64,000 bases of DNA from Pyrinomonadaceae bacterium (GCA_035563535.1 DATMVD010000010.1:186222-250221), one strand, 5' to 3'. Positions 4,478 to 57,920 are shown, numbered from the stretch's first letter. The notes: generated by a model from the letters alone, not told the origin. Program-made: numbers and translations.

Positions 4478-5140
4478 TTGGCAGCCGCCGCTTTCTACGA
4501 CCTCGAAGGGACTCTGGTGAGCACGAACCTCGTGCACACGCTCGGCTTCTACGCGCGCAACCAGCAGGGGCTTCTGCGCTCCATCCAGAAGGGGGCCTCG
4601 ACCCTGGTGAGCATCCCCCTGTTCGCCGCGGCCGACGCCTACAGCCGCATGGTCTTCAACGACATCTTCTTCCGCCGCTACAAGGGGCAGTCGGAAGACC
4701 GCCTGCGCTTCTTCGCGCAGGACCTGTTCGAGGACGTTCTGAAGCCCGCCGTCTTCCCCGGCGCGAAGACGCTGATTCGGAAGTCGCGCAGCCTCGGGCT
4801 CCGGCAGGTCGTCGTCACCGGCGCGCTCGACTTCTCGGTCGCGCCCCTGATGGAGTACCTCGGCGTGGACGACTTCGTCGCCAACCGCCTTGAGTTCGTC
4901 AACGGCGTCGCCACGGGGCGGCTCCTCCCCCCCGTGCTCGCCTCCGCCACCAAGGCCTCCTGGATTCGCACCTACGCCGAGAAGCACGGCATCAACCTGA
5001 GCGACTCCTACGCCTACAGCGACAGCATGAGCGACCTGCCCATGCTCTCCATCGTCGGCCACCCGGCGGCCGTCAACCCGGACATGCGGCTCAAACAAAC
5101 GGCCATGCACCACGACTGGCCGATCCTGAACCTTAAGTAA
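4478..5140 (+). CDS. HAD-IB family hydrolase (phosphoserine-phosphatase-like)
   Basis: 220 aa with a TTG start 7 nt after GGAGG. N-terminal FYDLEGTLV is a DxDGT-like HAD motif I. SerB/HAD-IB-like throughout. Confidence 0.75.
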   Translation: MAAAAFYDLEGTLVSTNLVHTLGFYARNQQGLLRSIQKGASTLVSIPLFAAADAYSRMVFNDIFFRRYKGQSEDRLRFFAQDLFEDVLKPAVFPGAKTLIRKSRSLGLRQVVVTGALDFSVAPLMEYLGVDDFVANRLEFVNGVATGRLLPPVLASATKASWIRTYAEKHGINLSDSYAYSDSMSDLPMLSIVGHPAAVNPDMRLKQTAMHHDWPILNLK

Positions 5141-5166
5141 ATGGTAAATAGTAAATAGTGAATGGA
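5141..5166. repeat. Left inverted repeat flanking the four-helix-bundle gene (AT-rich variant of the family-A unit: GGTAAATAGTAAATAGTGAATGG)
   Basis: Matches in reverse complement the element at 5548-5578 (CCATTTACCATTTACTATTCACCATTTAC). Composition is AT-rich against the GC-rich background. Confidence 0.6.
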
Positions 5167-5178
5167 GGTTCTTTGACG

Positions 5179-5541
5179 ATGAGACCTCATGAAAAGCTGG
5201 AGGTGTGGAGTTCGGCAATGGATTTTGTTGTTGAGGTCTATCGTTCGACCGAGGCTTTCCCTAAAGAAGAGAAATTCGGATTGACTTCGCAGATACGGCG
5301 AGCAGCCGTCTCGGTTCCCGCGAACATCGCCGAGGGCGCGGCCCGGCAGTCGCCCAAAGTGTTCATGCACTTCTTATCCAACGCACAAGGGTCGGCCAGC
5401 GAGCCTGAAACTGAACTAACAATTGCATATCGGCTAGGGTATCTGGCGCAAGGCAGGTACTCCGAGTTGTCGGCGGCGGTCGATAAAATCGGCCGCATGC
5501 TCACCGGCCTTTCCCGACACCTGAAACGTAAAGCAACCTAG
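5179..5541 (+). CDS. Four-helix-bundle protein (TIGR02436 family; 23S rRNA intervening-sequence protein type)
   Basis: 120 aa from MRPHEKLEVW. GGAGG lies 10 nt upstream of ATG 5179; the track's alternative GTG is at 5158. Family similarity (EKxxVWxxAxxFxxxVY... NIAEGxxR). Flanked by inverted repeats. Confidence 0.75.
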   Translation: MRPHEKLEVWSSAMDFVVEVYRSTEAFPKEEKFGLTSQIRRAAVSVPANIAEGAARQSPKVFMHFLSNAQGSASEPETELTIAYRLGYLAQGRYSELSAAVDKIGRMLTGLSRHLKRKAT

Positions 5542-5547
5542 CTCTTT

Positions 5548-5578
5548 CCATTTACCATTTACTATTCACCATTTACTA
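5548..5578. repeat. Right inverted repeat flanking the four-helix-bundle gene
   Basis: Reverse-complement partner of 5141-5166. Lies between the 4HB stop (5541) and the larA-like start (5583). Confidence 0.6.
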
Positions 5579-5582
5579 AACC

Positions 5583-7181
<1,599 letters not shown>

Positions 7182-14917: not shown

Positions 14918-17900
14918 TCAGTCTATCGAGAAATATTTCGCCTCCTCGTGGTGGACGATGATGGCGGAGGTGGACTGCTCGGGGACGAGCTGGAACTCTT
15001 CCGAAAGCTCGACACCGATGCGCTCGGGTTGGAGCAGCTCGAAGAGCTTGGTCTGGTCTTCGAGGTCGGGGCAGGCCGGGTAGCCGAAGCTGAAGCGCGA
15101 GCCCTGGTAGCCCTGGTGGAAGAGTTTCGCGAGTTCGGCGGCGTCGCGGCCGGCGATGCCGAGTTCTTCGCGGACGTGCTTGTGCCAGAGTTCGGCGAGC
15201 GCCTCGGCCGCCTCGACCGAGAGGCCGTGGAAGTAGAGGTAGTCGGAGTAGTTGTCCGTGCGAAACAGCTCGTGCGCGTACTCCGACGCGCGGCGGCCGA
15301 CCGTGACGAGCTGGAAGGCGACCACGTCCACGCGCCCCGACTCCTTCGAGGCGAAGAAGTCCGCGAGGCACAGCCGGCGGCCCCCGGGCTGGCGCGGGAA
15401 GGTGAAGCGCGTGCGCTCCGTGCGCCCGTCGTCGTGGTAGACGACGAGGTCGTTGCCTTCGGACTGGCAGGGGAAGTAGCCGTAAGTCACCTGCGGGACG
15501 AGCAGGTTCTCGCGCTCCGTTTGGAGCTTCAACTCGTCGTAGACGGGGCGCACCTTCTCCGCGACGAAGGCGCGGTACTCTTCCGCCGTCTTGCGCCCCT
15601 GCTTGAACTGCCACTGCCCCTTGAAGAGCGCCGTCTCGTTGACGAACCTGAAGACTCTTTCGAGCGGGACGTGCTCGACGACGCGCGAGCCGTAGAAGGG
15701 CGCGGTCGGAATCGGCGCGTTCGGGTTCACGTCCGAGCGCTCCGTGTGCGAGGCGGCCTCGCGCGACTTGAGCACGCCCCGAGGCCGCGCCCGCGCCGCA
15801 CGCACGCCGAGCTTCGCGTCCTCGCCGACAAGCTCCTCCGCGTCGTCGGACTCCGCATTGGTCGAGCCGTTCCCCGCCCCGGCCGCGGCCTTCGCCGCCT
15901 TCGGCGCGCCTTCGGCGTGCGCGCCCGAGCCGGTCAGCAAGTCCATCGTGTGCAGGCCGTCGAAGGCGTCGCGCGCGTAGAAGAGGCGGCCCTGGTAGAG
16001 CGACTCCAAGTCCTCCTCGACGTAACGCCGGGTCAGGGCCGCGCCGCCGAGCACGACGGGGACGTTGATGCCGCGCTCGTTCATCAGCTCAAGGTTCTCG
16101 CGCATGATGAGCGTGGACTTGACCAGCAGGCCGGACATGCCGATGGCGTCGGCCTTGTGCTCCTCGGACGACTGGAGGATGGCCTCGATGGGCTGCTTGA
16201 TGCCGAGGTTGACGACCTTGTAGCCGTTGTTCGTCAGGATGATGTCCACGAGGTTCTTGCCGATGTCGTGCACGTCGCCCTTGACCGTGGCGAGCACCAT
16301 CGTCCCCTTCGCCGTCGCGCCGCCCTTCTTCTCCATGAACGGTTCGAGGAAGCGCACCGCCGCCTTCATCACCTCGGCCGACTGCAAGACGAACGGCAAC
16401 TGCATCTGCCCGCTGCCGAAGAGTTCGCCGACCACCTTCATGCCGTCGAGCAGGATGTTGTTGATGATGTCGAGCGCGCTGTAGCTCTGGAGCGCGAGCT
16501 TGAGGTTGTCTTCGAGCCCTATCTTCTCGCCGTCGATGATGTGCTGCTTGAGGCGCTCCTCGACGGGCAGGTTGTCGTCAACCTTGTGCTCCTTCTTCGC
16601 CTTGACGCCCTCGAAGAGCTTCGTGAACTCTGCGAGCGGGTCGTAGGTGCACACGTCGCCCTCGAACTTCCGCTCGTCGTAGATGAGTTGGCGCGCCACC
16701 TCGCGCTCGCGCTCGGGGATGCGGTTGAGCGGGACGATCTTCGAGGCGTTGACGATGGCCGAGTCGAGCCCCGCCTCGACGGCCTCGTGCAGGAAGACGG
16801 AGTTGAGGACGACGCGCGAGGCGGCGTTCAGGCCGAACGAGATGTTCGAGACGCCGAGGATGGTGTAGCAGCCGGGCAGCTCCGACTTTATCCTCCGCAG
16901 CGCCTCGACGGTCTCGGCGGCGTTGCGGCGGTCTTCCTCGATGCCGGTCGAGATGGGCAGCGCCAGCGGGTCGAAGAAGATGTCGTGCGCCGGGAACCCG
17001 AGTTCCTTCGTCGCCTGCTCGTAGGCGCGCTTCGCCATCCTGAGCTTGCCCTCGGCCGTGCGCGCCATGCCCTCCTCGTCGATGGTTCCGACGACGACGG
17101 CCGCGCCGTACTCCTGAGCGAGCCCGACGACTTTCTTGAAGCGCGGCTCGCCGTCCTCGTAGTTCGTCGAGTTGAGGATCGACTTGCCGCCCGCGTGCTG
17201 GAGGCCGGCCTCCATCTTCTCCCACTCGGTCGAGTCGAACATGAGCGGGATGCGCACCTGCGTGACGAGGCGGGAGGCCAGCTCGTGCATGTCGCGGACG
17301 CCGTCGCGGCCGACGAAGTCCACGTTCACGTCGAGGACGTGCGCGCCCTCGCGCTCCTGCTCGCGCGCGAGCGAGACGAGGCCGTCCCAGTCCTCGGCGT
17401 TCAATAGGTCGCGCATCTTCTTCGAGCCCGAGGCGTTGACCCGCTCGCCGACGATGAGGAACGAGGCGTCCTGCACGTAGGGCTGCTGGACGTAGATGGA
17501 CGAGGCCGCGGGGAGCACCGAACCCCGGCGCCGCTTCGGCGTGAGGTTGCCGAGCCTTTCGACCAGCAGCCCGATGTGCGCGGGCGTCGTGCCGCAGCAG
17601 CCGCCGACGACGCTGGCGCCGAAGTCTTTCGCGAAGTGCTCGACCTGCGCGGCGAAACTCTCGGGCGTCTCATCGTAGTGCATCTTGCCGTCTTTAACTT
17701 CCGGCAGGCCGGCGTTCGGCAGCACGGAGACGGGCAGGCGCGCGTTCTCGCAGAGGTAGCGCAGGCTCTCGGTCATGTTGCGCGGCCCCGTGCCGCAGTT
17801 CATGCCGATGACGTCAATCGGGAAGGGCTCGAGCGCGGTGAGCGCGGCGCTGATCTCAGTGCCGGGCAGCATCGTGCCCCACGGCTCAATCGTCACCTGC

Positions 17901-18466
17901 GCGAAGACGGGCACGCGCGCGCCTCGGCGCTTGAACTCCTCGAAGATGGCCGCGAGCGTCGCCTTCGTCTGGAGCAAGTCCTGGCAGGTCTCGACGACGA
18001 GCAGGTCGCAGCCGCCGTCGAGCAGGCCGCGCGCCTGTACGGCGTAAGCCTCCTTCACCTGCCGGTAGGTGACGTGGCCGAGCGTGGGCGACTTCGTCCC
18101 CGGCCCCATCGAGCCGGCGACCCAGCGCGGGCGCTCGCGTGTCGAGAAGTCCGAGGCGATGCGTTTGGCGAGTTGCGCGGCCTTGACGTTGAGGTCGTAG
18201 GCCATGTGGCCGATGCCGTACTCGTCGAGGACGTAGGGGATGCCGCCGAACGAGTCGGTCTCGACCACGTCGCAGCCGGCCTCGAAGAAGTCCGCGTGGA
18301 CGCGCTCGACCGCCTCGGGCTTGCTGACGAGCAGGTACTCGGGGCAGCCCTCGAACTGCGCCCCGCCGTAGTCGTCCACCGACAGGTTCTGCACCTGTAA
18401 GTTCGTGCCCATCGCGCCGTCGAAGATGATGACGCGCTCGTTTAAGGTCTTCAGAAAATCGCTCAT
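14918..18466 (-). CDS. metH: Cobalamin-dependent methionine synthase
   Basis: 1182 aa from MSDFLKTLNERVIIFDGAMGT. Homocysteine-binding, pterin-binding, B12-binding (DVHDIGKN = DxHxxG) and AdoMet-activation domains are all present. The track ORF's extra 25 N-terminal residues were rejected. Confidence 0.9.
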   Translation of the reverse strand: MSDFLKTLNERVIIFDGAMGTNLQVQNLSVDDYGGAQFEGCPEYLLVSKPEAVERVHADFFEAGCDVVETDSFGGIPYVLDEYGIGHMAYDLNVKAAQLAKRIASDFSTRERPRWVAGSMGPGTKSPTLGHVTYRQVKEAYAVQARGLLDGGCDLLVVETCQDLLQTKATLAAIFEEFKRRGARVPVFAQVTIEPWGTMLPGTEISAALTALEPFPIDVIGMNCGTGPRNMTESLRYLCENARLPVSVLPNAGLPEVKDGKMHYDETPESFAAQVEHFAKDFGASVVGGCCGTTPAHIGLLVERLGNLTPKRRRGSVLPAASSIYVQQPYVQDASFLIVGERVNASGSKKMRDLLNAEDWDGLVSLAREQEREGAHVLDVNVDFVGRDGVRDMHELASRLVTQVRIPLMFDSTEWEKMEAGLQHAGGKSILNSTNYEDGEPRFKKVVGLAQEYGAAVVVGTIDEEGMARTAEGKLRMAKRAYEQATKELGFPAHDIFFDPLALPISTGIEEDRRNAAETVEALRRIKSELPGCYTILGVSNISFGLNAASRVVLNSVFLHEAVEAGLDSAIVNASKIVPLNRIPEREREVARQLIYDERKFEGDVCTYDPLAEFTKLFEGVKAKKEHKVDDNLPVEERLKQHIIDGEKIGLEDNLKLALQSYSALDIINNILLDGMKVVGELFGSGQMQLPFVLQSAEVMKAAVRFLEPFMEKKGGATAKGTMVLATVKGDVHDIGKNLVDIILTNNGYKVVNLGIKQPIEAILQSSEEHKADAIGMSGLLVKSTLIMRENLELMNERGINVPVVLGGAALTRRYVEEDLESLYQGRLFYARDAFDGLHTMDLLTGSGAHAEGAPKAAKAAAGAGNGSTNAESDDAEELVGEDAKLGVRAARARPRGVLKSREAASHTERSDVNPNAPIPTAPFYGSRVVEHVPLERVFRFVNETALFKGQWQFKQGRKTAEEYRAFVAEKVRPVYDELKLQTERENLLVPQVTYGYFPCQSEGNDLVVYHDDGRTERTRFTFPRQPGGRRLCLADFFASKESGRVDVVAFQLVTVGRRASEYAHELFRTDNYSDYLYFHGLSVEAAEALAELWHKHVREELGIAGRDAAELAKLFHQGYQGSRFSFGYPACPDLEDQTKLFELLQPERIGVELSEEFQLVPEQSTSAIIVHHEEAKYFSID

Positions 18467-18505
18467 CGGGTTCAGCCTTTCCGCCTGCGCGCTTCCCTCG
18501 CAAAG

Positions 18506-18541
18506 AGAAACCCCGCGCCGAACAACGCGGGGCTCACTCAC
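18506..18541 (-). terminator. Terminator/attenuator-like hairpin in the metH leader (GCCCCGCGUUGUUCGGCGCGGGG followed by UUUCUCUUU on the transcribed strand), about 40 nt upstream of the metH start
   Basis: GC stem CCCCGCG/CGCGGGG seen at 18518-18540 on the plus strand, followed on the minus strand by a U-rich run. Confidence 0.4.
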
Positions 18542-18741
18542 GAAAGCCTTTCTTTACGGGCCTCTTCAGGGGAAGCGCCCCGAGCTGTTTAGCGGTTTAT
18601 TTTACGTGGCCGCAAGTCGCCTTAACTCACCACGTTCGCCGAGCATTGAAACACCGCCTGCCGGACATGTCAAGGAAGCCGTCGGCGCGCCGGCGGGCTT
18701 CGGCGGCGGCGGCTCGTCCGACACGACCTTCGGCGTCGCGC

Positions 18742-20505: not shown

Positions 20506-21717
20506 ATGACAGAGACCGCAGTCAAAATCCCCTTCCCCGTCTCGCCGAACGTCGCGCGGATGCAGCCCTCCTCGACTCTGGCCGCGATGCAGGCGGCCAT
20601 CGCCCTGCGCCACGAGGGGCACGACGTGGTGGACTTCGGCCCCGGCGAGCCCGACTTCGACACGCCCGCGCACATCAAGGAGGCCGCCGCCCGCGCCATG
20701 CGCGACGGCCAGACCAAGTACACGCCGACGGGCGGGACGAAGAAGTTTCAGGAGTCGGTCGCCGCCTACTACGAGCGCGAGTTCGGCGCGCGGGTCAACC
20801 CCTCGGAGGTGACGGCGACCGCGGGCGGCAAGCAGGGCATCTTCAACGCCGTCGTCACGCTCTGCGGCCCCGGCGACGACGTGCTCATCCCGAAGCCCTA
20901 CTGGGTGACCTTCCCCGAGATCGCCACCTTCGCCGGCGCGCGCCCCGTCTTCGTTGAGACCGAGGAGACCGGCTTCCAACTGACGGCCGAGCAGGTCGAG
21001 GCGGCCATCACGCCGAACACCAGGCTCATCATCATCAACTCGCCCTCGAACCCCTCGGGGCGCGTCATCCCGCCCGCCGAGTTCGAGCGCATCCTGCGCG
21101 TCGCCGCCGAGCGCGGCGTCTACGCCGTCTCGGACGAGTGTTACTTAAAATTCGTCTACGAGCCGGCCGAGGTCTTCAGCGCGGCGACGCTCGACCGGAG
21201 CTTGCGCGAGCGGCTCTGCATCGCGGGCTCCTTCTCGAAGACCTACGCGATGACGGGCTGGCGCATCGGCTACACCATCGCGCCCGCCGAATGGACGCGC
21301 GAGATGGGGAAGGTGCAGAGCCACTCGACCAGCAACCCCAGCTCCATCTCGCAGGCCGCGGCCGTCGCCGCCTTCGAGTCGTCGCAGGAATGCGTCGGCG
21401 AGATGCTGGCCGAGTACCGCCGCCGCCGCGACTGGCTCATTGGCGCCATCGAAGAGATTCCCGGGCTGGGGTGCGCGACGCCCGAGGGAGCCTTCTACGT
21501 CTTCCCCTGCGTGCGCGGCTGCCTGGGCGGCGAGCTGAAGACCTCGGCCGACTTCGCCGACCGCCTCCTGCGCGAGGCGCACACCGTCGTCACCGACGGC
21601 GCGGGCTTCGGCTCCGAAGGCTACGTCCGCGTCTCCTACGCTACCTCGATGGAGAGGTTAGAGGAGGGCATCCGCCGCATCCGCCGGGTCGCGGAGAAGT
21701 ACGCGGAAGGAAAGTAG
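20506..21717 (+). CDS. Pyridoxal-phosphate-dependent aminotransferase class I (aspartate/aromatic aminotransferase type)
   Basis: 403 aa. Contains NSPSNPSG and SFSKTYAMTGWRIGY (PLP lysine). Confidence 0.85.
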   Translation: MTETAVKIPFPVSPNVARMQPSSTLAAMQAAIALRHEGHDVVDFGPGEPDFDTPAHIKEAAARAMRDGQTKYTPTGGTKKFQESVAAYYEREFGARVNPSEVTATAGGKQGIFNAVVTLCGPGDDVLIPKPYWVTFPEIATFAGARPVFVETEETGFQLTAEQVEAAITPNTRLIIINSPSNPSGRVIPPAEFERILRVAAERGVYAVSDECYLKFVYEPAEVFSAATLDRSLRERLCIAGSFSKTYAMTGWRIGYTIAPAEWTREMGKVQSHSTSNPSSISQAAAVAAFESSQECVGEMLAEYRRRRDWLIGAIEEIPGLGCATPEGAFYVFPCVRGCLGGELKTSADFADRLLREAHTVVTDGAGFGSEGYVRVSYATSMERLEEGIRRIRRVAEKYAEGK

Positions 21718-21826
21718 TCAGTAGTCAGTAGTCAGTAGAAAAGAAAGGGGCGGCGCGTCCGGTTGGCTACCGAGACGCGCCGCTTAGTTTTTCCTACTGA
21801 CTACTGTCTACTGACTACTGACTACT
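21714..21826. repeat. Family-B palindromic element (arms of tandem AGTAGTCAGTAG units, with a nested GC hairpin in the loop)
   Basis: Left arm AGTAGTCAGTAGTCAGTAGTCAGTAG and right arm CTACTGACTACTGTCTACTGACTACTGACTACT. Overlaps the stop codons of the convergent aminotransferase and TonB-C genes. Confidence 0.8.
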
Positions 21827-23209
21827 TCAATAAATGTTGAAGTTGTACTCCAGCACCACGTACTGCGAGACGGAGCGGCCGTCCTTCTGGGCGGGGCGGA
21901 ATTTGATCTGGCGGGAGGCGGCGATGGCCTTCTCGGTCAGGCCGTCGGGCAGGCCCTTGATGATGGTGATGTTCGTCACCGCGCCGTTGGCGGAGAGGAC
22001 GGCGCGGAGCCTGACCGTGCCGGTCACGTTGTTCTTGCGCGCCTCCTCGGTGAAGCCCGGCTCCGGCTTGTAGGTGATGACGGCGCGGGAGGTCACCTCG
22101 TCCGACTTGAAGGGGCGGGAGTAGTCAACGCCGCCGCCGCTGCCGCCGGGGCCGCCGCCGCCCTCGCGCGCGTCGCCGCCGCCCGTGTTGTAGCCGCGGC
22201 CGGGGCCGTAGCCCGTCCCGTCTCCGGAGCCCACGCCGCCGCCCGTGCCCTCGCCAATCCCGCCTCCTTTGCCGGAACCGGACGAGGGCGTCGAAGCCGT
22301 CGAGCGCGGGTCGCCGTAAGGCAGCGGCCGGTCGTCGGCCTTAATCAGCGCCGGGTCGGCCTGGATGATAGAAGGCACCGGCAGGTGCGCGTTCATCACC
22401 GGAGGCTTCGGCGATGGCGGGTTGATGGGCGGCTGGTCGAGTTGTGCCGGCGGGAGTTTACCCGCGGAAGCCTGCGTCTGCTCTTGGCGTCCGCCGCCGC
22501 CGCCGCCGCCCGGCTTCTCGTACTTCGGCTTCGAGCCGCCGCCGCGCCCTTCGTTCGTGCCCGCGGGGCCTCTGTCCGGCTGCGGCTGCTCCTTCGGAAT
22601 CTCGTTCTCGACGTAGCCGATGACCTCAAGGTTCACGTAAGGATTGGCGGACGCTACGTATCGCGCGCGCATCCGCTCAAGCGCGAAGACCGTGCCGAGC
22701 AGCAGCGTGACGAAGACGAAGGCGCTCGTCGTCGCCAGCGCGACGTTGCGCTGCGAGAAGAAGGCCCACCCGGCGCGGCCGTACGCCTCGACCGAGCGCC
22801 CAACGAAGCCGAAGGGGTCGCGCTTGAACTCGGGGAGCGTGAGCCCCGCCTCGCGCCCGACGGCCTTCAGCTCTCTGACGAGCCGCCGTGTGAGCCCCTC
22901 GTCCTCGACGAAGGTCAGGCGGTACTCGCCGCGCGCGAACTCGGGCCGCCCCCAGAAGTCTGTCCGAATCTCTTGTGCCATACGTCGCCTCAGTCTTTCT
23001 TCGTAGCCGTCCCAGAAACTTTCCGCCGGGAGAGACGTTTCGGCGGCCTCGTCGAAGACGCGCAGCGTCTCGGCCATCCCTCGGTACCGAGCCGCGCAGC
23101 GCTCGCAGCGCACGACCTCTTCGAGCAGCGCCTCGCGCGCGCCGCCCTCCACCTCGCCGAACAGCAGCTCGACGAGTGACTCTTCGGTCGCCTGGCAATC
23201 GTGTCTCAT
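21827..23209 (-). CDS. Anti-sigma factor with an N-terminal zinc-finger-like domain, fused to a TM helix, a Gly-rich periplasmic linker and a C-terminal TonB-like domain
   Basis: 460 aa from MRHDCQATEE (ATG 23209), 2 nt after the sigma-factor stop (TAGTGATG). Has a CxxC motif, one TM helix and a C-terminal TonB_C-like fold (YKPEPGFTEEARKNNVTG...VLEYNFNIY). Confidence 0.7.
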   Translation of the reverse strand: MRHDCQATEESLVELLFGEVEGGAREALLEEVVRCERCAARYRGMAETLRVFDEAAETSLPAESFWDGYEERLRRRMAQEIRTDFWGRPEFARGEYRLTFVEDEGLTRRLVRELKAVGREAGLTLPEFKRDPFGFVGRSVEAYGRAGWAFFSQRNVALATTSAFVFVTLLLGTVFALERMRARYVASANPYVNLEVIGYVENEIPKEQPQPDRGPAGTNEGRGGGSKPKYEKPGGGGGGGRQEQTQASAGKLPPAQLDQPPINPPSPKPPVMNAHLPVPSIIQADPALIKADDRPLPYGDPRSTASTPSSGSGKGGGIGEGTGGGVGSGDGTGYGPGRGYNTGGGDAREGGGGPGGSGGGVDYSRPFKSDEVTSRAVITYKPEPGFTEEARKNNVTGTVRLRAVLSANGAVTNITIIKGLPDGLTEKAIAASRQIKFRPAQKDGRSVSQYVVLEYNFNIY

Positions 23210-23859: not shown

Positions 23860-23978
23860 ACAGGAAAAGACACCGCGGCGCCGGATTCGGTTGGCGAGCG
23901 CCGCAGAAATTTTGTGCTCAGATGAGGAGGAAGGCTGGGAGGGTTGGTTTGGGCAGAGAACGCAGACTTATTACCTAT

Positions 23979-41790: not shown

Positions 41791-42084
41791 TTATGGCGTT
41801 CTCACTCGACGAACCGACCCCCGAGCCTCCTCATACCAAATAGTGCTCGGCCTGCACCATCTGGCATAGGCGCGTCGATGCCGTCCCGCTTCATTCCATG
41901 AAAATGTCCTGACAAGCTTCTTCACGTTCTCAAACTTCGACGACGGGCACGTGCTTTGCACCGGCCGCGGGCAAAGGACGAAAGCCCCCGCGAGTTCTCT
42001 TCCCGCCGGGGAAGCAAGGCTTCGTCCGCCCTGAATCTGCCCCCAAGCAGAGCCCGTTTCGTTCGCAACGAAGGAGCGTCCAGT

Positions 42085-44373
42085 ATGCGTTCTCGTCTCT
42101 CCGGGCCGACCGTTCTCCTCCTGTTTCTCTTAACAATCTTTCTGCTGAGCGCGGTGGCGCGCGCCGAAGACACCGTCAACGACGAAGACGAGTACGAGGA
42201 GCGCGCGCGCGTCATGCGCATCAGCCTCCTCAAGGGCGAGGTCAGCCTCAAGCGCGCGGGCAACGACGAGTGGGAGGACGCGCGCCTGAACGCGCCGCTC
42301 GTCGAGGGCGACGTGCTCTCCACGGGCCGCGACGCGCGCCTGGAGATACAGGCCGACGCGCGCAACTTCGTCCGCGTCGGCCCCGACTCCGTCATCCGCG
42401 TCGTCACGCTCCGCGACGAGGGCGTCGCGCTCAGCCTCTCCGAAGGCACGGCCACCGTCCGCCTCTCGCGCCTGGACAAGGCCAAGGAATACTTCGAGCT
42501 TGACGCGCCCGGCGTGACCGTCGCCCCCGAGCGCGTCGGCCAGTACCGCGTCGATGTCGAGCAGGGCGGCGCGGTGCGCGTCACCGTGCGCGAGGACGGG
42601 CGCGCGCGCATCTACTCGCAGAACTCGGGCTTCGTCCTGCGCAACAACCGCACGGCGCGGCTCGCGCCCGACGGCTCGGGCGAGAGCGACTGGGAGTTCG
42701 CGTCGGCCGCGGGGTTCGACGAGTGGGACACATGGAACGACGACCGCGAGCGCTACCTCGCCGAGCGCCTGAAGTTCGAGGGGCGCGAGCGCTACTACGA
42801 CTCGGACGTGTACGGCGCGGAGGAGCTGGACGCCTACGGCGACTGGACGTACCACAAAGACTACGGCTACATCTGGCGGCCGCACACGACCGCCGTCAAC
42901 GTCTATAACGACTGGGCCCCGTACCGCTACGGGCGCTGGGTCTGGTGCCCGCCTTACGGCTGGACGTGGGTGGCGGACGAGCCCTGGGGCTGGGCCCCCT
43001 ATCACTACGGCCGCTGGGTCTACGTCAACAACAACTGGTGCTGGGCCCCGCGCGGCTACGGCTACCGCTACCGGCGCGCGTGGTGGAGGCCGGCGCTCGT
43101 CGTCTTCGTCACGCTCGACTTCGGGCGCGACCGGCACGTCTGCTGGTATCCGCTCACCTACGGCCAGCGCGACCCGCGCGGCCGCCACTGGGCGCGCGGC
43201 TACGACCGCCTTTCGCCGCTGCGCGGGCGCGACCTCGCACACCTACGCCGACAGAACCCGCACTGGCTGCGCGCCGTCTCGCACGCGCCCGCGCGAGAGT
43301 TCGGCGACCGTGCTTTAAGAGCGAGACCCGCGGCCCGCGACATCGCCGAGCGCGCACTCACGGGCGAGCCCGTGCGCGGGCACCTGCCCGTCGAGCGCGC
43401 AGGCTCCGTGCGCGGCGGGCCGCGCGTGGGGGGCGCGAGGACGGCCGGCGGGGACGGGCGCGACACTCTGACGATCAACCGCCCGACTCCCGTCATGCCC
43501 CCGCGCGCCGTCGCAGACCGCCCGACCGGAGCCGCCGCGCGCACGCCCGGCGTCCCCCTCGACGGCGAGTTGCGCCGCACGCGCGTCTTCAACAACCGCG
43601 AGCCGCGCGTGCCTTCGACGCCCGACGTGACGAGCGGCAGCAGCACGACGCCCGTCGGCGGCGACCCGGGCGTGAGCACCGGCGCGTTCGAGCGCCCGCG
43701 CTCCTCCGGCACTCCCGGCACAAGCCCGGGCGGCGAATCGGCGCGCCCCGCGCGCGTGCGTCCCACACGCCCCGACGTGCCCACGGAGTCCGCGCCCGGC
43801 GGCGGGGGCGCGTCCAATGACGACGCCGTGTCGCCCAAGCGCCGCGTGCGTAACACCGGAGGTGGCGGAGACAACGGCGAGCCGCGCGTCCGACCCACGC
43901 AGCCTTCGTCCGACCAGCCGACCTCCGAAGCCCCGCGCGAGACGCGGCCTCGGGAAGACGGCTCAAGCCCCGTCTACCGCCCGCGCCACGAGCCGCGCAT
44001 ACGGCCGCGCGAAGATGACGGCGGCGGCTCCTCCGCCCCGCCGCGACGCGAGGAGTCTGCGCCGCGACGCGAAGCGCCCTCCTACAACCCCGAGCCTTCG
44101 CCGCCGCGCGAGTCGCCCGCGCCCCGGCGCGAAGCCCCCGCCGAGCCGAGACGCGAGTCGCCGCGCTACGAAGCGCCGCGCTCCGAGCCGCGCCGCGAAC
44201 AGCCGCGACAGGAGTCGCCGCGCTACGAGGCCCCGCGGCAGGAGGCTCCGCGCCACGACCCTCCTCCCCGTAATGACCCGCCGCCCCGTCAGGAGGCCCC
44301 TCGACAAGAGGCCCCGCGCCAGCGCGACCCGGACGCGCCGCGGCCGGGTAAGGTGAGGCCGGACAACCGCTGA
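42085..44373 (+). CDS. FecR-domain protein with a Trp/Tyr-rich DUF6600-like domain and a long Pro/Arg/Glu-rich repetitive tail
   Basis: 762 aa from MRSRLSGPTVLLLF. AAGGAG lies 8 nt upstream and a signal peptide is present. A FecR-like segment is followed by YGYIWRPH...WAPYRYGRWVW...WGWAPYHYGRWVY. The tail is tandem ESPRYEAPR-type repeats. Confidence 0.65.
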   Translation: MRSRLSGPTVLLLFLLTIFLLSAVARAEDTVNDEDEYEERARVMRISLLKGEVSLKRAGNDEWEDARLNAPLVEGDVLSTGRDARLEIQADARNFVRVGPDSVIRVVTLRDEGVALSLSEGTATVRLSRLDKAKEYFELDAPGVTVAPERVGQYRVDVEQGGAVRVTVREDGRARIYSQNSGFVLRNNRTARLAPDGSGESDWEFASAAGFDEWDTWNDDRERYLAERLKFEGRERYYDSDVYGAEELDAYGDWTYHKDYGYIWRPHTTAVNVYNDWAPYRYGRWVWCPPYGWTWVADEPWGWAPYHYGRWVYVNNNWCWAPRGYGYRYRRAWWRPALVVFVTLDFGRDRHVCWYPLTYGQRDPRGRHWARGYDRLSPLRGRDLAHLRRQNPHWLRAVSHAPAREFGDRALRARPAARDIAERALTGEPVRGHLPVERAGSVRGGPRVGGARTAGGDGRDTLTINRPTPVMPPRAVADRPTGAAARTPGVPLDGELRRTRVFNNREPRVPSTPDVTSGSSTTPVGGDPGVSTGAFERPRSSGTPGTSPGGESARPARVRPTRPDVPTESAPGGGGASNDDAVSPKRRVRNTGGGGDNGEPRVRPTQPSSDQPTSEAPRETRPREDGSSPVYRPRHEPRIRPREDDGGGSSAPPRREESAPRREAPSYNPEPSPPRESPAPRREAPAEPRRESPRYEAPRSEPRREQPRQESPRYEAPRQEAPRHDPPPRNDPPPRQEAPRQEAPRQRDPDAPRPGKVRPDNR
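44000..44340 (+). repeat. Tandem coding repeats (PRREAP / ESPRYEAPR / QEAPR units) in the tail of the FecR-domain protein
   Basis: Direct nucleotide and peptide repeats seen. Confidence 0.7.
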
Positions 44374-44486: not shown

Positions 44487-44606
44487 ACAGTAGGCAGTAG
44501 GCAGATGGCAGTAGGCAGTCGCTCCGCGCCAAGGGTGTTGTAGGGAAACTCGCGTCTTGACCGCAGGGCTTCCAACTGCCTACTGCCTTCTGCCTACTGC
44601 CTACTC
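44487..44606. repeat. Family-B variant palindromic element (arms of GTAGGCAGTAGGCAG units)
   Basis: Left arm CAGTAGGCAGTAGGCAGATGGCAGTAGGCAGTC and right arm CTGCCTACTGCCTTCTGCCTACTGCCTACT. Lies between the FecR-protein stop and the next gene's start. Confidence 0.75.
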
Positions 44607-55975: not shown

Positions 55976-56027
55976 ACGCGACTCCTTAGTTTAAGGATGA
56001 AGCTTTCGCGGGAGAGTATAGCAGGAG

Positions 56028-56141
56028 AAAGTAGACAGTAGTCAGTAGTCGGTAGGAAAACAGAGGCGGCGCGTTCCGGTTATAAGCCGAGCGCGCCGCC
56101 TCTCTTTTCTACTGGCTACTGACTACTGTCTACTGTCTACT
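56028..56141. repeat. Family-B palindromic element, near-identical to the one at 21714-21826
   Basis: Left arm GTAGACAGTAGTCAGTAGTCGGTAG and right arm CTACTGGCTACTGACTACTGTCTACTGTCTACT, with a nested GC hairpin in the loop. Confidence 0.8.
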
Positions 56142-57512
56142 TCAGTAAATGTTGAAGTTGTACTCCAGCACCACGTACTGCGAGACGCTTCGGCCGTCCT
56201 TCTCGGCCGGGGTGAAGCGTATCTGGCGCGCGGCCGAGATGGCCTTCTCGGTCAGGCCGTCGGGCAGGCCCTTGACGACGCTGATGCCCTGGATGCCGCC
56301 GGAGGAGTGGAGGATCGCGCGGAGCCGCACGACGCCTGTCACGTTGTTCTTGCGCGCCTCCTCGGTGAAGCCCGGCTCCGGCTTGAAGGTGATGATCGCC
56401 TTGCGCGTCACCTCGTTCTGCCGGAAGGGGCGCGAGTAGTCAACGCCGCCACCGCCGCCTCCGCCGCCGGGGCCGCCGCCGCCTTCGCGCGCGTCGCCGC
56501 CGCCCGTGTTATACCCGCGGCCGGGGCCGTAGCCCGTCCCGTCGCCCGTGCCGATGCCGCCACCGGTGCCGTCACCCATGCCGCCGCCGCGGCCCTGGCC
56601 CGAAGAGGGTATCGTCGCCGTCGAGCGCGGGTCGCCGTAAGGCAGCGGCCGGTCGTCGGCCTTAATCAGCGCCGGGTCGGCCTGGATGATGGAAGGCACC
56701 GGCAGGTGCGCGTTCATCACCGGAGGCTTCGGCGATGGCGGGTTGATGGGCGGCTGATCCAACTGCGCGGGGGGCAGCTTGCCCGCGGAAGCGGGGGTCT
56801 GCTCCTGGCGGCCGCCGCCGCCGCCGCCGCCCGGCTTCTCATACTTCGGCTTCGAGCCGCCGCCCTTCCCCTCGTTCGTCCCCGCCGGGCCCTTGTCGGG
56901 CGTCGGCTGCTCCTTCGGAATCTCGTTCTCGACGTAGCCGACGATCTCAAGATTCTCGTAAGGGTTGGTGCTGGCCGCCGCGTTCCGCAGCCGGAGCTGC
57001 TCCAGGACGGCGACGATGCCGATGATGCCGAAGGTGACGACGATGCCCGCCGAGATCGCAAGCGCCACGTTGCGCTGCGAGATGAACTTCCAGCCCGCCG
57101 TGCCGTAAGCCCTGGCCGACCGCTTCGTGAACCCGACGGGGTCGCGCTTGAACTCGGGCCACGTCAGCTCGGCGTCGTGCCCGACGGCCTTCAGCTCTTT
57201 GATGAGGCGGCGCGTCAGGCCCTCGTCTTCGAGGAAGGTCAGGTGGAGTTCTTCGCGCTCGTTCGGGGTCGGCGGTAGACCTGCGCCCGCCGCGGTCGCT
57301 TCGGAGGTCTCCGAACCGTTCGCGCCGTTCGCGCCGCCCGCGCCGTTAGACGAGGACGCGCCGACAGGCGGAGCCGCCGCGGTCACGACCGACTCGTCCG
57401 CCGCGCGGAAGGCGGCAGCCCCCTCGGCGTGGACGCCCAAAGGCGTCCCGTCCACCGGGCAGAAACCGAACTTATCCGCGAACTCCTCTTGGCACGTAGG
57501 ACACTGTTTCAT
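56142..57512 (-). CDS. Zinc-ribbon / TM / Gly-rich / TonB-C-domain protein, a paralogue of the anti-sigma-TonB-C protein at 21827-23209
   Basis: 456 aa. N-terminal MKQCPTCQEEFADKFGFCPVDG. The C-terminal ~360 aa are almost collinear with the other copy, and the 3' DNA is near-identical. Confidence 0.7.
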   Translation of the reverse strand: MKQCPTCQEEFADKFGFCPVDGTPLGVHAEGAAAFRAADESVVTAAAPPVGASSSNGAGGANGANGSETSEATAAGAGLPPTPNEREELHLTFLEDEGLTRRLIKELKAVGHDAELTWPEFKRDPVGFTKRSARAYGTAGWKFISQRNVALAISAGIVVTFGIIGIVAVLEQLRLRNAAASTNPYENLEIVGYVENEIPKEQPTPDKGPAGTNEGKGGGSKPKYEKPGGGGGGGRQEQTPASAGKLPPAQLDQPPINPPSPKPPVMNAHLPVPSIIQADPALIKADDRPLPYGDPRSTATIPSSGQGRGGGMGDGTGGGIGTGDGTGYGPGRGYNTGGGDAREGGGGPGGGGGGGGVDYSRPFRQNEVTRKAIITFKPEPGFTEEARKNNVTGVVRLRAILHSSGGIQGISVVKGLPDGLTEKAISAARQIRFTPAEKDGRSVSQYVVLEYNFNIY

Positions 57513-57818
57513 TTTCTTAAGGAACCTCCCGTCGAACCACGCGGGGAAAGGGTAGCCCGTGCTGTACCCAAGTTACAAACTTTTTCCGAACCATTCAAGC
57601 CCCGGAGCGGAGCCTTGCGTGCGGCTGGCGGGCGGGCGGGTCGTCCGCAAGGTGCTCTCTGAACAGCTTTTGATGCCCCGCCCGCCCGAATCGCTGCCAT
57701 CTGACCGCCCGCCGCCCCGAAAAAAGACGGCCCGCCCCGCCCCGCCCGAAGGCATTTGACGCCTCCCGCGCCTGCATCTAAGATTTCCGGGAACTGCTCC
57801 CCGTTGCCGTAAAAAACC

Positions 57819-57911
57819 GGGTCAGTACCGCCTGCGGTAGCGGGTGGGACTCCGGCGACACGGCGCCCTCGGGTTATGACGACCCACCCGCTACCGCAGG
57901 TGGTACTGACC
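57819..57911. repeat. Family-E palindromic element
   Basis: GGGTCAGTACCGCCTGCGGTAGCGGGTGGG ... CCCACCCGCTACCGCAGGTGGTACTGACC. Ends 9 nt before the M16 gene's ATG. Confidence 0.8.
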
Positions 57912-57920
57912 TGATTAGCT

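Follow-up and report, generated by a model that had tools for sequence, protein, structure and literature searches.

Several described systems resemble in part a pair of genes found in a stretch of 64,000 nucleotides (nt) from a metagenome-assembled genome (MAG) of a member of the Pyrinomonadaceae (Acidobacteriota; GCA_035563535.1, DATMVD010000010.1:186222-250221). This whole stretch, with a G+C content of 67.8%, is hereafter called the window. Both genes lie on the minus strand, 34 kb apart, and both products carry the public name 'energy transducer TonB'. Gene A (21827-23209) encodes 460 amino acids (aa; HWS86167.1) and follows a gene for an extracytoplasmic function (ECF) sigma factor, while gene B (56142-57512) encodes 456 aa (HWS86195.1). 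The reading favoured here, with some reserve, is that A is an anti-sigma factor on a TonB-like body and B an old paralogue with a zinc-ribbon head, the periplasmic spacers of the two being kept alike by gene conversion.

Class I anti-sigma factors, such as RsiW, RslA, ChrR and RseA/MucA, share several features with A. Their genes lie immediately 3' of an ECF sigma gene, and the proteins consist of a helical N-terminal domain of ~80 aa with a conserved CxxC, one transmembrane (TM) helix and an extracytoplasmic sensor; they are also the top fold matches of the A head. Unlike in these factors, the outer part of A is a TonB-type spacer with a TonB_C domain, a glutamate replaces the histidine of HxxxCxxC and is accompanied by invariant H3 and C5, and an additional conserved module of 60 aa separates the anti-sigma domain from the membrane. 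Cell-surface signalling of the FecR/PupR kind, with a FecA-type transducer and a FecI-type sigma factor, differs in other respects. A has no FecR domain, no signalling-domain TonB-dependent transducer is encoded within the 64 kb (no protein with Plug or TonB_dep_Rec), and TonB_C, which normally belongs to the energiser, sits on the anti-sigma factor itself.

TonB, HasB and TonB2 have the same general layout as A and B: they are anchored in the membrane at the N-terminus and end in TonB_C, with a Pro-rich periplasmic spacer in between. A conserved Ser/His motif of the TM anchor, SxxxH, which is established for TonB and TolA, couples energy transducers of the TonB family to ExbB-ExbD. In contrast to TonB, HasB and TonB2, A and B lack SxxxH, have cytoplasmic regions of 150 aa, a Gly-rich and highly conserved spacer and a narrow, family-specific juxtamembrane module, and have no exbBD nearby.

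Two further systems come close. GltJ and GltG are TonB-like proteins of the Myxococcus gliding machinery, and GltJ illustrates that proteins of such a layout can connect a switch in the cytoplasm with the envelope (PMC11135422). Like GltJ, B begins with a zinc ribbon, which a flexible linker joins to a single TM helix, and continues through a flexible periplasmic region to TonB-C (PMC11135422). However, B does not have the ZnR-GYF-TonB_C architecture: the GYF domain is missing, the ligands are C4, C7, C18 and D21 instead of four cysteines, the neighbours are housekeeping rather than Agl/Glt genes, and the NCBIfam GltJ model gives no match. In the PUMA3 system of Pseudomonas aeruginosa, VreA brings a domain resembling the TolA/TonB C-terminus into ECF sigma signalling without a barrel receptor (PMC2729926). 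Unlike A, VreA is soluble and periplasmic, carries a signalling domain and acts on a separate FecR-type regulator to which it is not fused (PMC2729926). The locus has some, but not all, of the defining features of each of these systems. In the literature searched, no description of an anti-sigma factor with TonB_C was found, an absence that is not proof of absence, and nothing on sigma factors of the Pyrinomonadaceae.

A preliminary description of this DNA, made from sequence alone, had presented A and B as paralogues with a collinear C-terminal portion and wholly different heads. The pair is a real feature that was in part mis-described. Intact open reading frames (ORFs) are present at both positions, and the collinear portion is borne out, with 76% identity over 371 aa between A93-460 and B86-456 (BLASTP, E 1e-161) and 81.5% identity at the nt level. 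The N-terminal ~90 aa are indeed unrelated and cannot be aligned by BLASTP. This difference is not a frameshift artefact, as each head is an intact ORF in dozens of genomes; when the artefact was considered as its source, no remnant of the other head was found in any frame. At the DNA level, likeness spans 22922-21710 of A and 57246-56027 of B (82% over 1233 nt), including the ~115-nt hairpins that follow the stop codons.

From N to C, the common body starts with a helical module in the cytoplasm and crosses the membrane as a single TM helix; a Gly/Pro spacer and a TonB_C domain follow. In A, the juxtamembrane module (aa 93-156; 22742-22933, minus strand) reads LTFVEDEGLTRRL...EFKRDP...SQRN, and its three helices carry the consensus LTF.EDEGLTRRL...WPEFKRDP...SQRN after either head. 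It is 72% identical to aa 86-149 of B and helical in the AlphaFold2 models of both proteins. No match to GYF or any other known domain was found for it, and a profile of its 64 residues matches only 121 clusters among 1.84 billion representatives. The TM helix of A (aa 156-188; 22646-22744, minus strand), a helix in the AlphaFold2 model, is the least alike of the shared segments (42% aa identity between A and B in the window, 33% on average). Neither this helix (NVALATTSAFVFVTLLLGTVFAL) nor that of B (NVALAISAGIVVTFGIIGIVAVL) contains a histidine, none is conserved in the alignments, and SxxxH is accordingly absent from both. The Gly/Pro-rich periplasmic spacer of A (aa 189-382; 22064-22645, minus strand), delimited from sequence, is unusually conserved for such a linker and is the zone in which A and B evolve in concert. 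The TonB_C domain (aa 383-459; 21833-22063, minus strand; Pfam PF03544, 1.2e-13) scores 51.8 bits in A and 46.5 in B against a cut-off of 24.6, and TIGR01352 gives 38.8 and 34 bits (cut-off 27.1), which upholds the TonB_C-like end of the earlier account. Its nearest solved relative is TonB2 (PDB 2k9k). In B, the shared part with the stop codon occupies 56142-57257 on the minus strand (module aa 86-149, TM helix 147-180, spacer, TonB_C 379-455).

The head of A (aa 1-92; 22934-23209, minus strand) is predicted to be a four-helix anti-sigma domain, an assignment made through predicted fold and synteny. AlphaFold2 places helices at residues 5-16, 22-34, 36-59 and 69-80, with a predicted local distance difference test (pLDDT) score of 86-96 for the first 50 residues, and the best Foldseek matches are anti-sigma domains. 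H3, C5, E31, C35 and C38 are invariant in an alignment of 66 orthologues, and the head is 96-100% identical between species. H3 and C5 could complete a metal site, which from the conserved residues would probably be H3/C5/C35/C38. The only PDB profile match in this region is RsiW, with an E value of 0.54 that is not significant alone.

The second line of evidence is the neighbouring gene, which encodes an ECF sigma factor of 202 aa (HWS86168.1; 23212-23820, minus strand; Pfam Sigma70_r2 6e-19 and r4_2 1.2e-16, NCBIfam sigma70-ECF 115 bits). As had been proposed, one copy is wired to this factor: the stop codon TAG of the sigma gene is followed by TG and then by the ATG of A, in the same orientation and with a gap of 2 nt (junction TAGTGATG), and the same sigma gene lies directly upstream in all 27 of the 27 A-type loci. 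From fold and position, we infer that the A head binds this sigma factor.

The public name, TonB_C, the single TM helix and the Pro-rich spacer would also suit ordinary TonB energy transducers, in which case sigma would merely be a neighbour and the A head, which has no match to an anti-sigma hidden Markov model (HMM), would be no anti-sigma domain. This is unlikely, given TM helices devoid of any histidine, the lack of a nearby exbBD gene, the large and conserved cytoplasmic heads, the anti-sigma folds that top the matches of the A head and the invariable sigma gene upstream of A. In deeper relatives, moreover, a different sigma gene overlaps the start codon of the paralogue (ATGA).

Upstream of the sigma gene lies a candidate ECF-type promoter, CCAACC-N16-GTGTCT (23868-23894, minus strand). 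GCCAACC and GTGTCT are conserved blocks (consensus of at least 80%) in an alignment of 24 upstream regions, from the window and 23 other loci, 12 rows of which were displayed. The sigma gene is probably autoregulated through this element. In a pattern search of the window, the copy upstream of the sigma gene was the sole intergenic occurrence and none was found upstream of B; B is therefore not obviously in the sigma regulon. No gene for ExbB/D, TolQ/R or a TonB-dependent receptor is present among the ~40 genes of the window, so that the reported absence of such a receptor nearby extends to the whole 64 kb. Rfam gave no match in either intergenic region of the A and B loci.

On the favoured reading, A would be a single-pass membrane anti-sigma factor whose head holds the product of the ECF sigma gene 2 nt upstream, and this sigma factor would probably drive its own CCAACC-N16-GTGTCT promoter. 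As to the ligand of TonB_C and the release of sigma, we infer that the domain would serve as a sensor or anchor touching a partner in the outer membrane or cell wall, and that gain or loss of this contact would free sigma, most likely through proteolysis of the anti-sigma factor. B would be transcribed from its own housekeeping-type promoter, would probably bind the same class of periplasmic partner as A, and would probably report to, or be recruited by, a different cytoplasmic partner. The anti-sigma head would have come together with its sigma gene.

The head of B (aa 1-25; 57438-57512, minus strand) is an invariant CPxC...FCPVDG motif of 25 residues (MKQCPTCQEEFADKFGFCPVDGTPL), in which C4, C7, C18 and D21 do not vary in the alignments, followed by ~60 disordered residues. 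The CPxC...FCP motif earlier described as a zinc ribbon is thus invariant, but searches of Pfam and NCBIfam give only sub-threshold zinc-ribbon matches in support of the name, and model confidence is low (pLDDT about 59). The head has no sequence match to any zinc-ribbon entry in the PDB, that of GltJ included if it was among the entries searched, and a search of a large protein database with the head alone returned only short fragments. The cytoplasmic linker behind it (aa 26-85; 57258-57437, minus strand) is of low complexity, disordered (pLDDT <50 for aa 27-94) and variable in the alignment. B stands alone, as had been stated: it is monocistronic, with its own sigma-70-like promoter candidate, TTGAAT-N17-TAACTT (57570-57598, minus strand), which is conserved in alignments of 16-19 upstream regions and is followed by a conserved 5' untranslated region.

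Further conserved sequences were seen in the intergenic region that B shares with a divergent gene for an M16 peptidase. At 57600-57800, the blocks AAATCTTAGATGC, GGCGTCAAATGCC, a T-run and GGCATCAAAAGC.GTTCAGAGAG are strongly conserved in 16 genomes. This region contains two mutually similar TCAAA.GC boxes, possibly represents an operator pair or a small RNA, and has no Rfam match. Just upstream of the M16 start codon is an inverted repeat with 28-nt arms (~57822-57912; GTCAGTACCACCTGCGGTAGCGGGTGGG ... CCCACCCGCTACCGCAGGCGGTACTGAC), which is resembled by a GTACCGC/GGTAGCG palindrome after gene A in locus L013.

The preliminary description took the duplication to be recent. A synteny scan of one genome per species (79 loci, all comparison genomes being MAGs) argues for an old event. 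Complete copies of A and B occur in 14 genomes, including that of the window, often on the same contig and 19-58 kb apart. In most complete loci, convergent aminotransferase and cytidylyltransferase genes lie downstream of A. In B-type loci of the window's clade, UbiE and M16 peptidase genes lie upstream (divergent), and ATP-grasp and S9 peptidase genes follow downstream. Since both paralogues hold conserved syntenic positions across at least 14 species-level Pyrinomonadaceae genomes, the duplication is not recent and, judging from gene order, predates the radiation of this clade. Outside the converted tracts, the two are also well diverged (TM helix 33% aa and 52% nt identity on average). A young duplicate in which one head was later replaced would account for the identity of the shared part and the similar 3' hairpin, but it is very unlikely: each paralogue keeps its own head and flanks throughout these genomes, identity between A and B is a mosaic that ranges from 53% to 100% in 60-nt windows, and in the TM and module segments the sequences group with their orthologues. 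Independent duplications in other genomes are excluded, as heads, module and TM helix all cluster by orthology.

The claim of head-swapping fares differently. The same body does carry different heads, yet this is an old modular pattern and not a local event. Among 114 newly returned module clusters, 59 have a zinc-ribbon motif, 20 an N-terminal extension with the conserved pattern L..LL..W..P..P..L..RV, and seven an A-type head. The zinc ribbon thus prevails, and may be the older form. In a deeper clade, a paralogue with extension and zinc ribbon overlaps a different ECF sigma gene at its start (ATGA), the product of that gene being 28% identical to the sigma factor of the window. In locus L056, such an extension-type gene occupies the position next to the aminotransferase that is held here by sigma and A, so sigma gene and head seem to have been replaced jointly on an unchanging body.

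The extension itself comprises ~45 aa (EEQALKLLL..W..P..P..L..RV..SYRRQ) and precedes the zinc ribbon in L039 (5620-5765), L051, L056, L059, L068 and L076; the database protein P0292 has it without a zinc ribbon. In L039, the sigma gene that goes with it lies at 5027-5620. Possibly the extension is a sigma-binding element of a minimal or new kind. At the B position, longer relatives of about 490-746 aa (stop-to-stop ORFs) were observed in L049 (5677-7614), L055, L063 (2818-5055) and L032 (5635-7104). They keep TonB_C and spacer, and their N-terminal regions, which match neither head and no Pfam family, are possibly further heads.

Gene conversion between A and B, also raised in the preliminary description, does occur, although its signal lies in the periplasmic spacer and not at the 3' end or in the palindrome. 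Identities were compared in the 14 genomes with both genes (14 pairs, 28 sequences). In the spacer (aa 246-305), mean aa identity is 0.87 between same-genome paralogues, compared with 0.61 among A sequences, 0.68 among B sequences and 0.64 between A and B of different genomes. The order is reversed in the module (aa 93-152), where the corresponding values are 0.67, 0.76, 0.74 and 0.63, and in the TM helix (aa 153-185), where they are 0.33, 0.69, 0.38 and 0.30. For aa 246-305, nt identity is 0.87 within genomes versus 0.70-0.72 between them, and identical codons make up 0.79 of identical residues within genomes versus 0.62-0.64 between orthologues. The nearest neighbour of a sequence is its same-genome paralogue for 11-13 of the 28 in the spacer, 3 of 28 in module and TM helix, and 4 of 28 in TonB_C. 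This same-genome excess in the spacer, which extends to synonymous sites, points to recurrent gene conversion in short tracts, mainly within aa 186-365.

Such tracts have clear bounds. When the two loci of the window are aligned, near-identity is confined to an internal segment, 22296-22435 (minus strand) against 56617-56756, in which 140 nt contain one mismatch at an offset of 34321 nt. This most recent tract has sharp edges: one flank carries 25 mismatches over 73 nt, the other 10 over 25 nt. In MAGs with Mb-scale contigs, taken as long-read assemblies, exact runs of 221 and 107 nt are shared by A and B. Residues 186-245 of A in the window most resemble B-type sequences, also from other genomes, which points to conversion from B to A. 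Short tracts repeatedly homogenise the spacer, and TonB_C and the 3' hairpin less so, while heads, module and TM helix evolve as separate orthologous lineages.

Purifying or co-evolutionary selection for a lineage-specific partner, combined with strong codon bias, could instead make the spacers alike without any conversion. The high conservation of this Gly/Pro linker and a G+C content of about 90% at third codon positions (GC3), which raises the chance of identical codons, speak for it. The excess of identical synonymous codons within genomes, the abrupt edges of the 140-nt tract and the length of the exact shared runs do not. Nor do the non-coding 3' elements of one genome (JBJMGQ; loci L001 and L027), where the hairpin regions of A and B are near-identical by eye, and unquantified, over the ~170 nt displayed. 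Selection on its own is consequently an improbable explanation.

The flanks of the two genes appear to have been exchanged as well. The order sigma-A-ATP-grasp-S9 was found in L010 and L029, and M16-B-aminotransferase in L040 and L043. In a deeper Pyrinomonadales clade, the order is consistently M16-paralogue-aminotransferase and sigma-paralogue-ATP-grasp. Relative to that clade, the 3' flanks are exchanged in the clade of the window, as would be expected to result from a reciprocal crossover in the shared region. From these gene orders, at least one such crossover appears to have swapped the 3' flanks in the past.

Both the near-identical tract and the odd flank orders could in principle be artefacts of MAG assembly. 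Many MAG contigs end within these genes, and the contigs of L010 and L029 are short, with a coverage of about 1x. However, the flanks of the window match, on both sides, the order in more than 20 other genomes, spacer identity is equal or higher in MAGs with contigs of 876 kb and 5 Mb, and the deeper-clade order recurs in at least five independent MAGs, one with a 2.1-Mb contig. An artefact is therefore extremely unlikely. Contigs were observed to end at ~aa 182-310 of these genes, or to start at ~aa 361, in L012, L015, L019, L020, L042, L045, L064 and L070-L079, as would be expected if near-identical converted tracts break short-read assemblies.

A number of points weigh against A as a TonB-bodied anti-sigma factor and against conversion as the sole cause of spacer likeness. 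Against the anti-sigma models of Pfam (even at E<=1) and NCBIfam, the A head gives no match, so that the CxxC anti-sigma module of the preliminary description has predicted fold and sigma adjacency on its side and no family match. The canonical HxxxCxxC reads ExxxCxxC (E31-x3-C35-x2-C38), and neither the zf-HC2 (ZAS) motif nor a zf-HC2 or RseA HMM match is present. The window contains no receptor, ExbBD or TolQR gene that would point to a partner for TonB_C. The flank combinations on the short, low-coverage contigs L010 and L029 could be misassemblies through the repeat. Finally, selection for a common partner could reinforce same-genome similarity beyond the effect of conversion alone.

The 3' DNA of the two genes and the palindromes behind them had been called almost identical. 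Measured identity is 82.3% for 21827-21990 against 56142-56305 and 82% for the palindromes, on par with the gene-wide 81.5%. The hairpin after A (21710-21826, minus strand) begins directly after the stop codon at 21827-21829, has arms of (AGTAGTC)n heptamers and a GC-rich inner stem, and folds with a dG of -75 kcal/mol (z -12.6). That after B (56027-56141, minus strand) belongs to the same family (dG -75.6 kcal/mol, z -11.9). These elements may be terminators or mobile elements resembling repetitive extragenic palindromes (REP). A third heptamer-armed hairpin, at 44487-44606, follows a gene for a FecR and DUF6600 protein, and its inner part is irregular and less GC-rich. All three are ~120 nt long and near-perfect, with arms of tandem AGTAGTC or AGTAGGC, a dG of about -75 kcal/mol and z from -8.6 to -12.6. 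In related genomes, a like element with other heptamers (AGGAGTC, AGAGGTC) follows both paralogues.

Two other features of the window were recorded. The FecR and DUF6600 protein (805 aa; 41956-44373, plus strand) apparently has no neighbouring sigma or receptor gene and is unrelated to the A locus. A SAM_alpha (SAM-II) riboswitch match (18568-18643, minus strand; Rfam 47.2 bits, gathering score 36) sits just upstream of a gene for a B12-dependent methionine synthase (14918-18541, minus strand). This riboswitch family is named for the Alphaproteobacteria, and the host here is an acidobacterium.

A wider interpretation, speculative and rather doubtful, is that the body of module, TM helix, spacer and TonB_C is an unrecognised, FecR-independent device for signalling across the envelope with interchangeable heads. 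TonB_C could then dock onto an outer-membrane partner, such as the exposed TonB boxes of ligand-loaded transporters. The heads could be an anti-sigma domain for one ECF sigma factor, the N-terminal extension with or without a zinc ribbon (possibly a new anti-sigma module) for another, or a zinc ribbon alone for some other partner, and conversion could keep the stalks matched while paralogues compete for, or co-assemble on, one partner.

Should the role of A as an anti-sigma factor with a TonB_C sensor hold, signals from the outer membrane or the cell wall could reach an ECF sigma factor by a route that needs neither a FecR-type regulator nor a signalling-domain receptor. Such a route would exist in the Acidobacteria, an abundant and poorly studied soil phylum, and dozens of proteins that databases list as 'energy transducer TonB' would be mis-assigned regulators. 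The repeat would explain the frequent breaks of MAG contigs inside these genes. The pair, in which the stalk is homogenised while heads and membrane segments stay distinct, also offers a clean natural case of segment-specific concerted evolution and can be used to ask which parts of signalling proteins must remain matched between paralogues.

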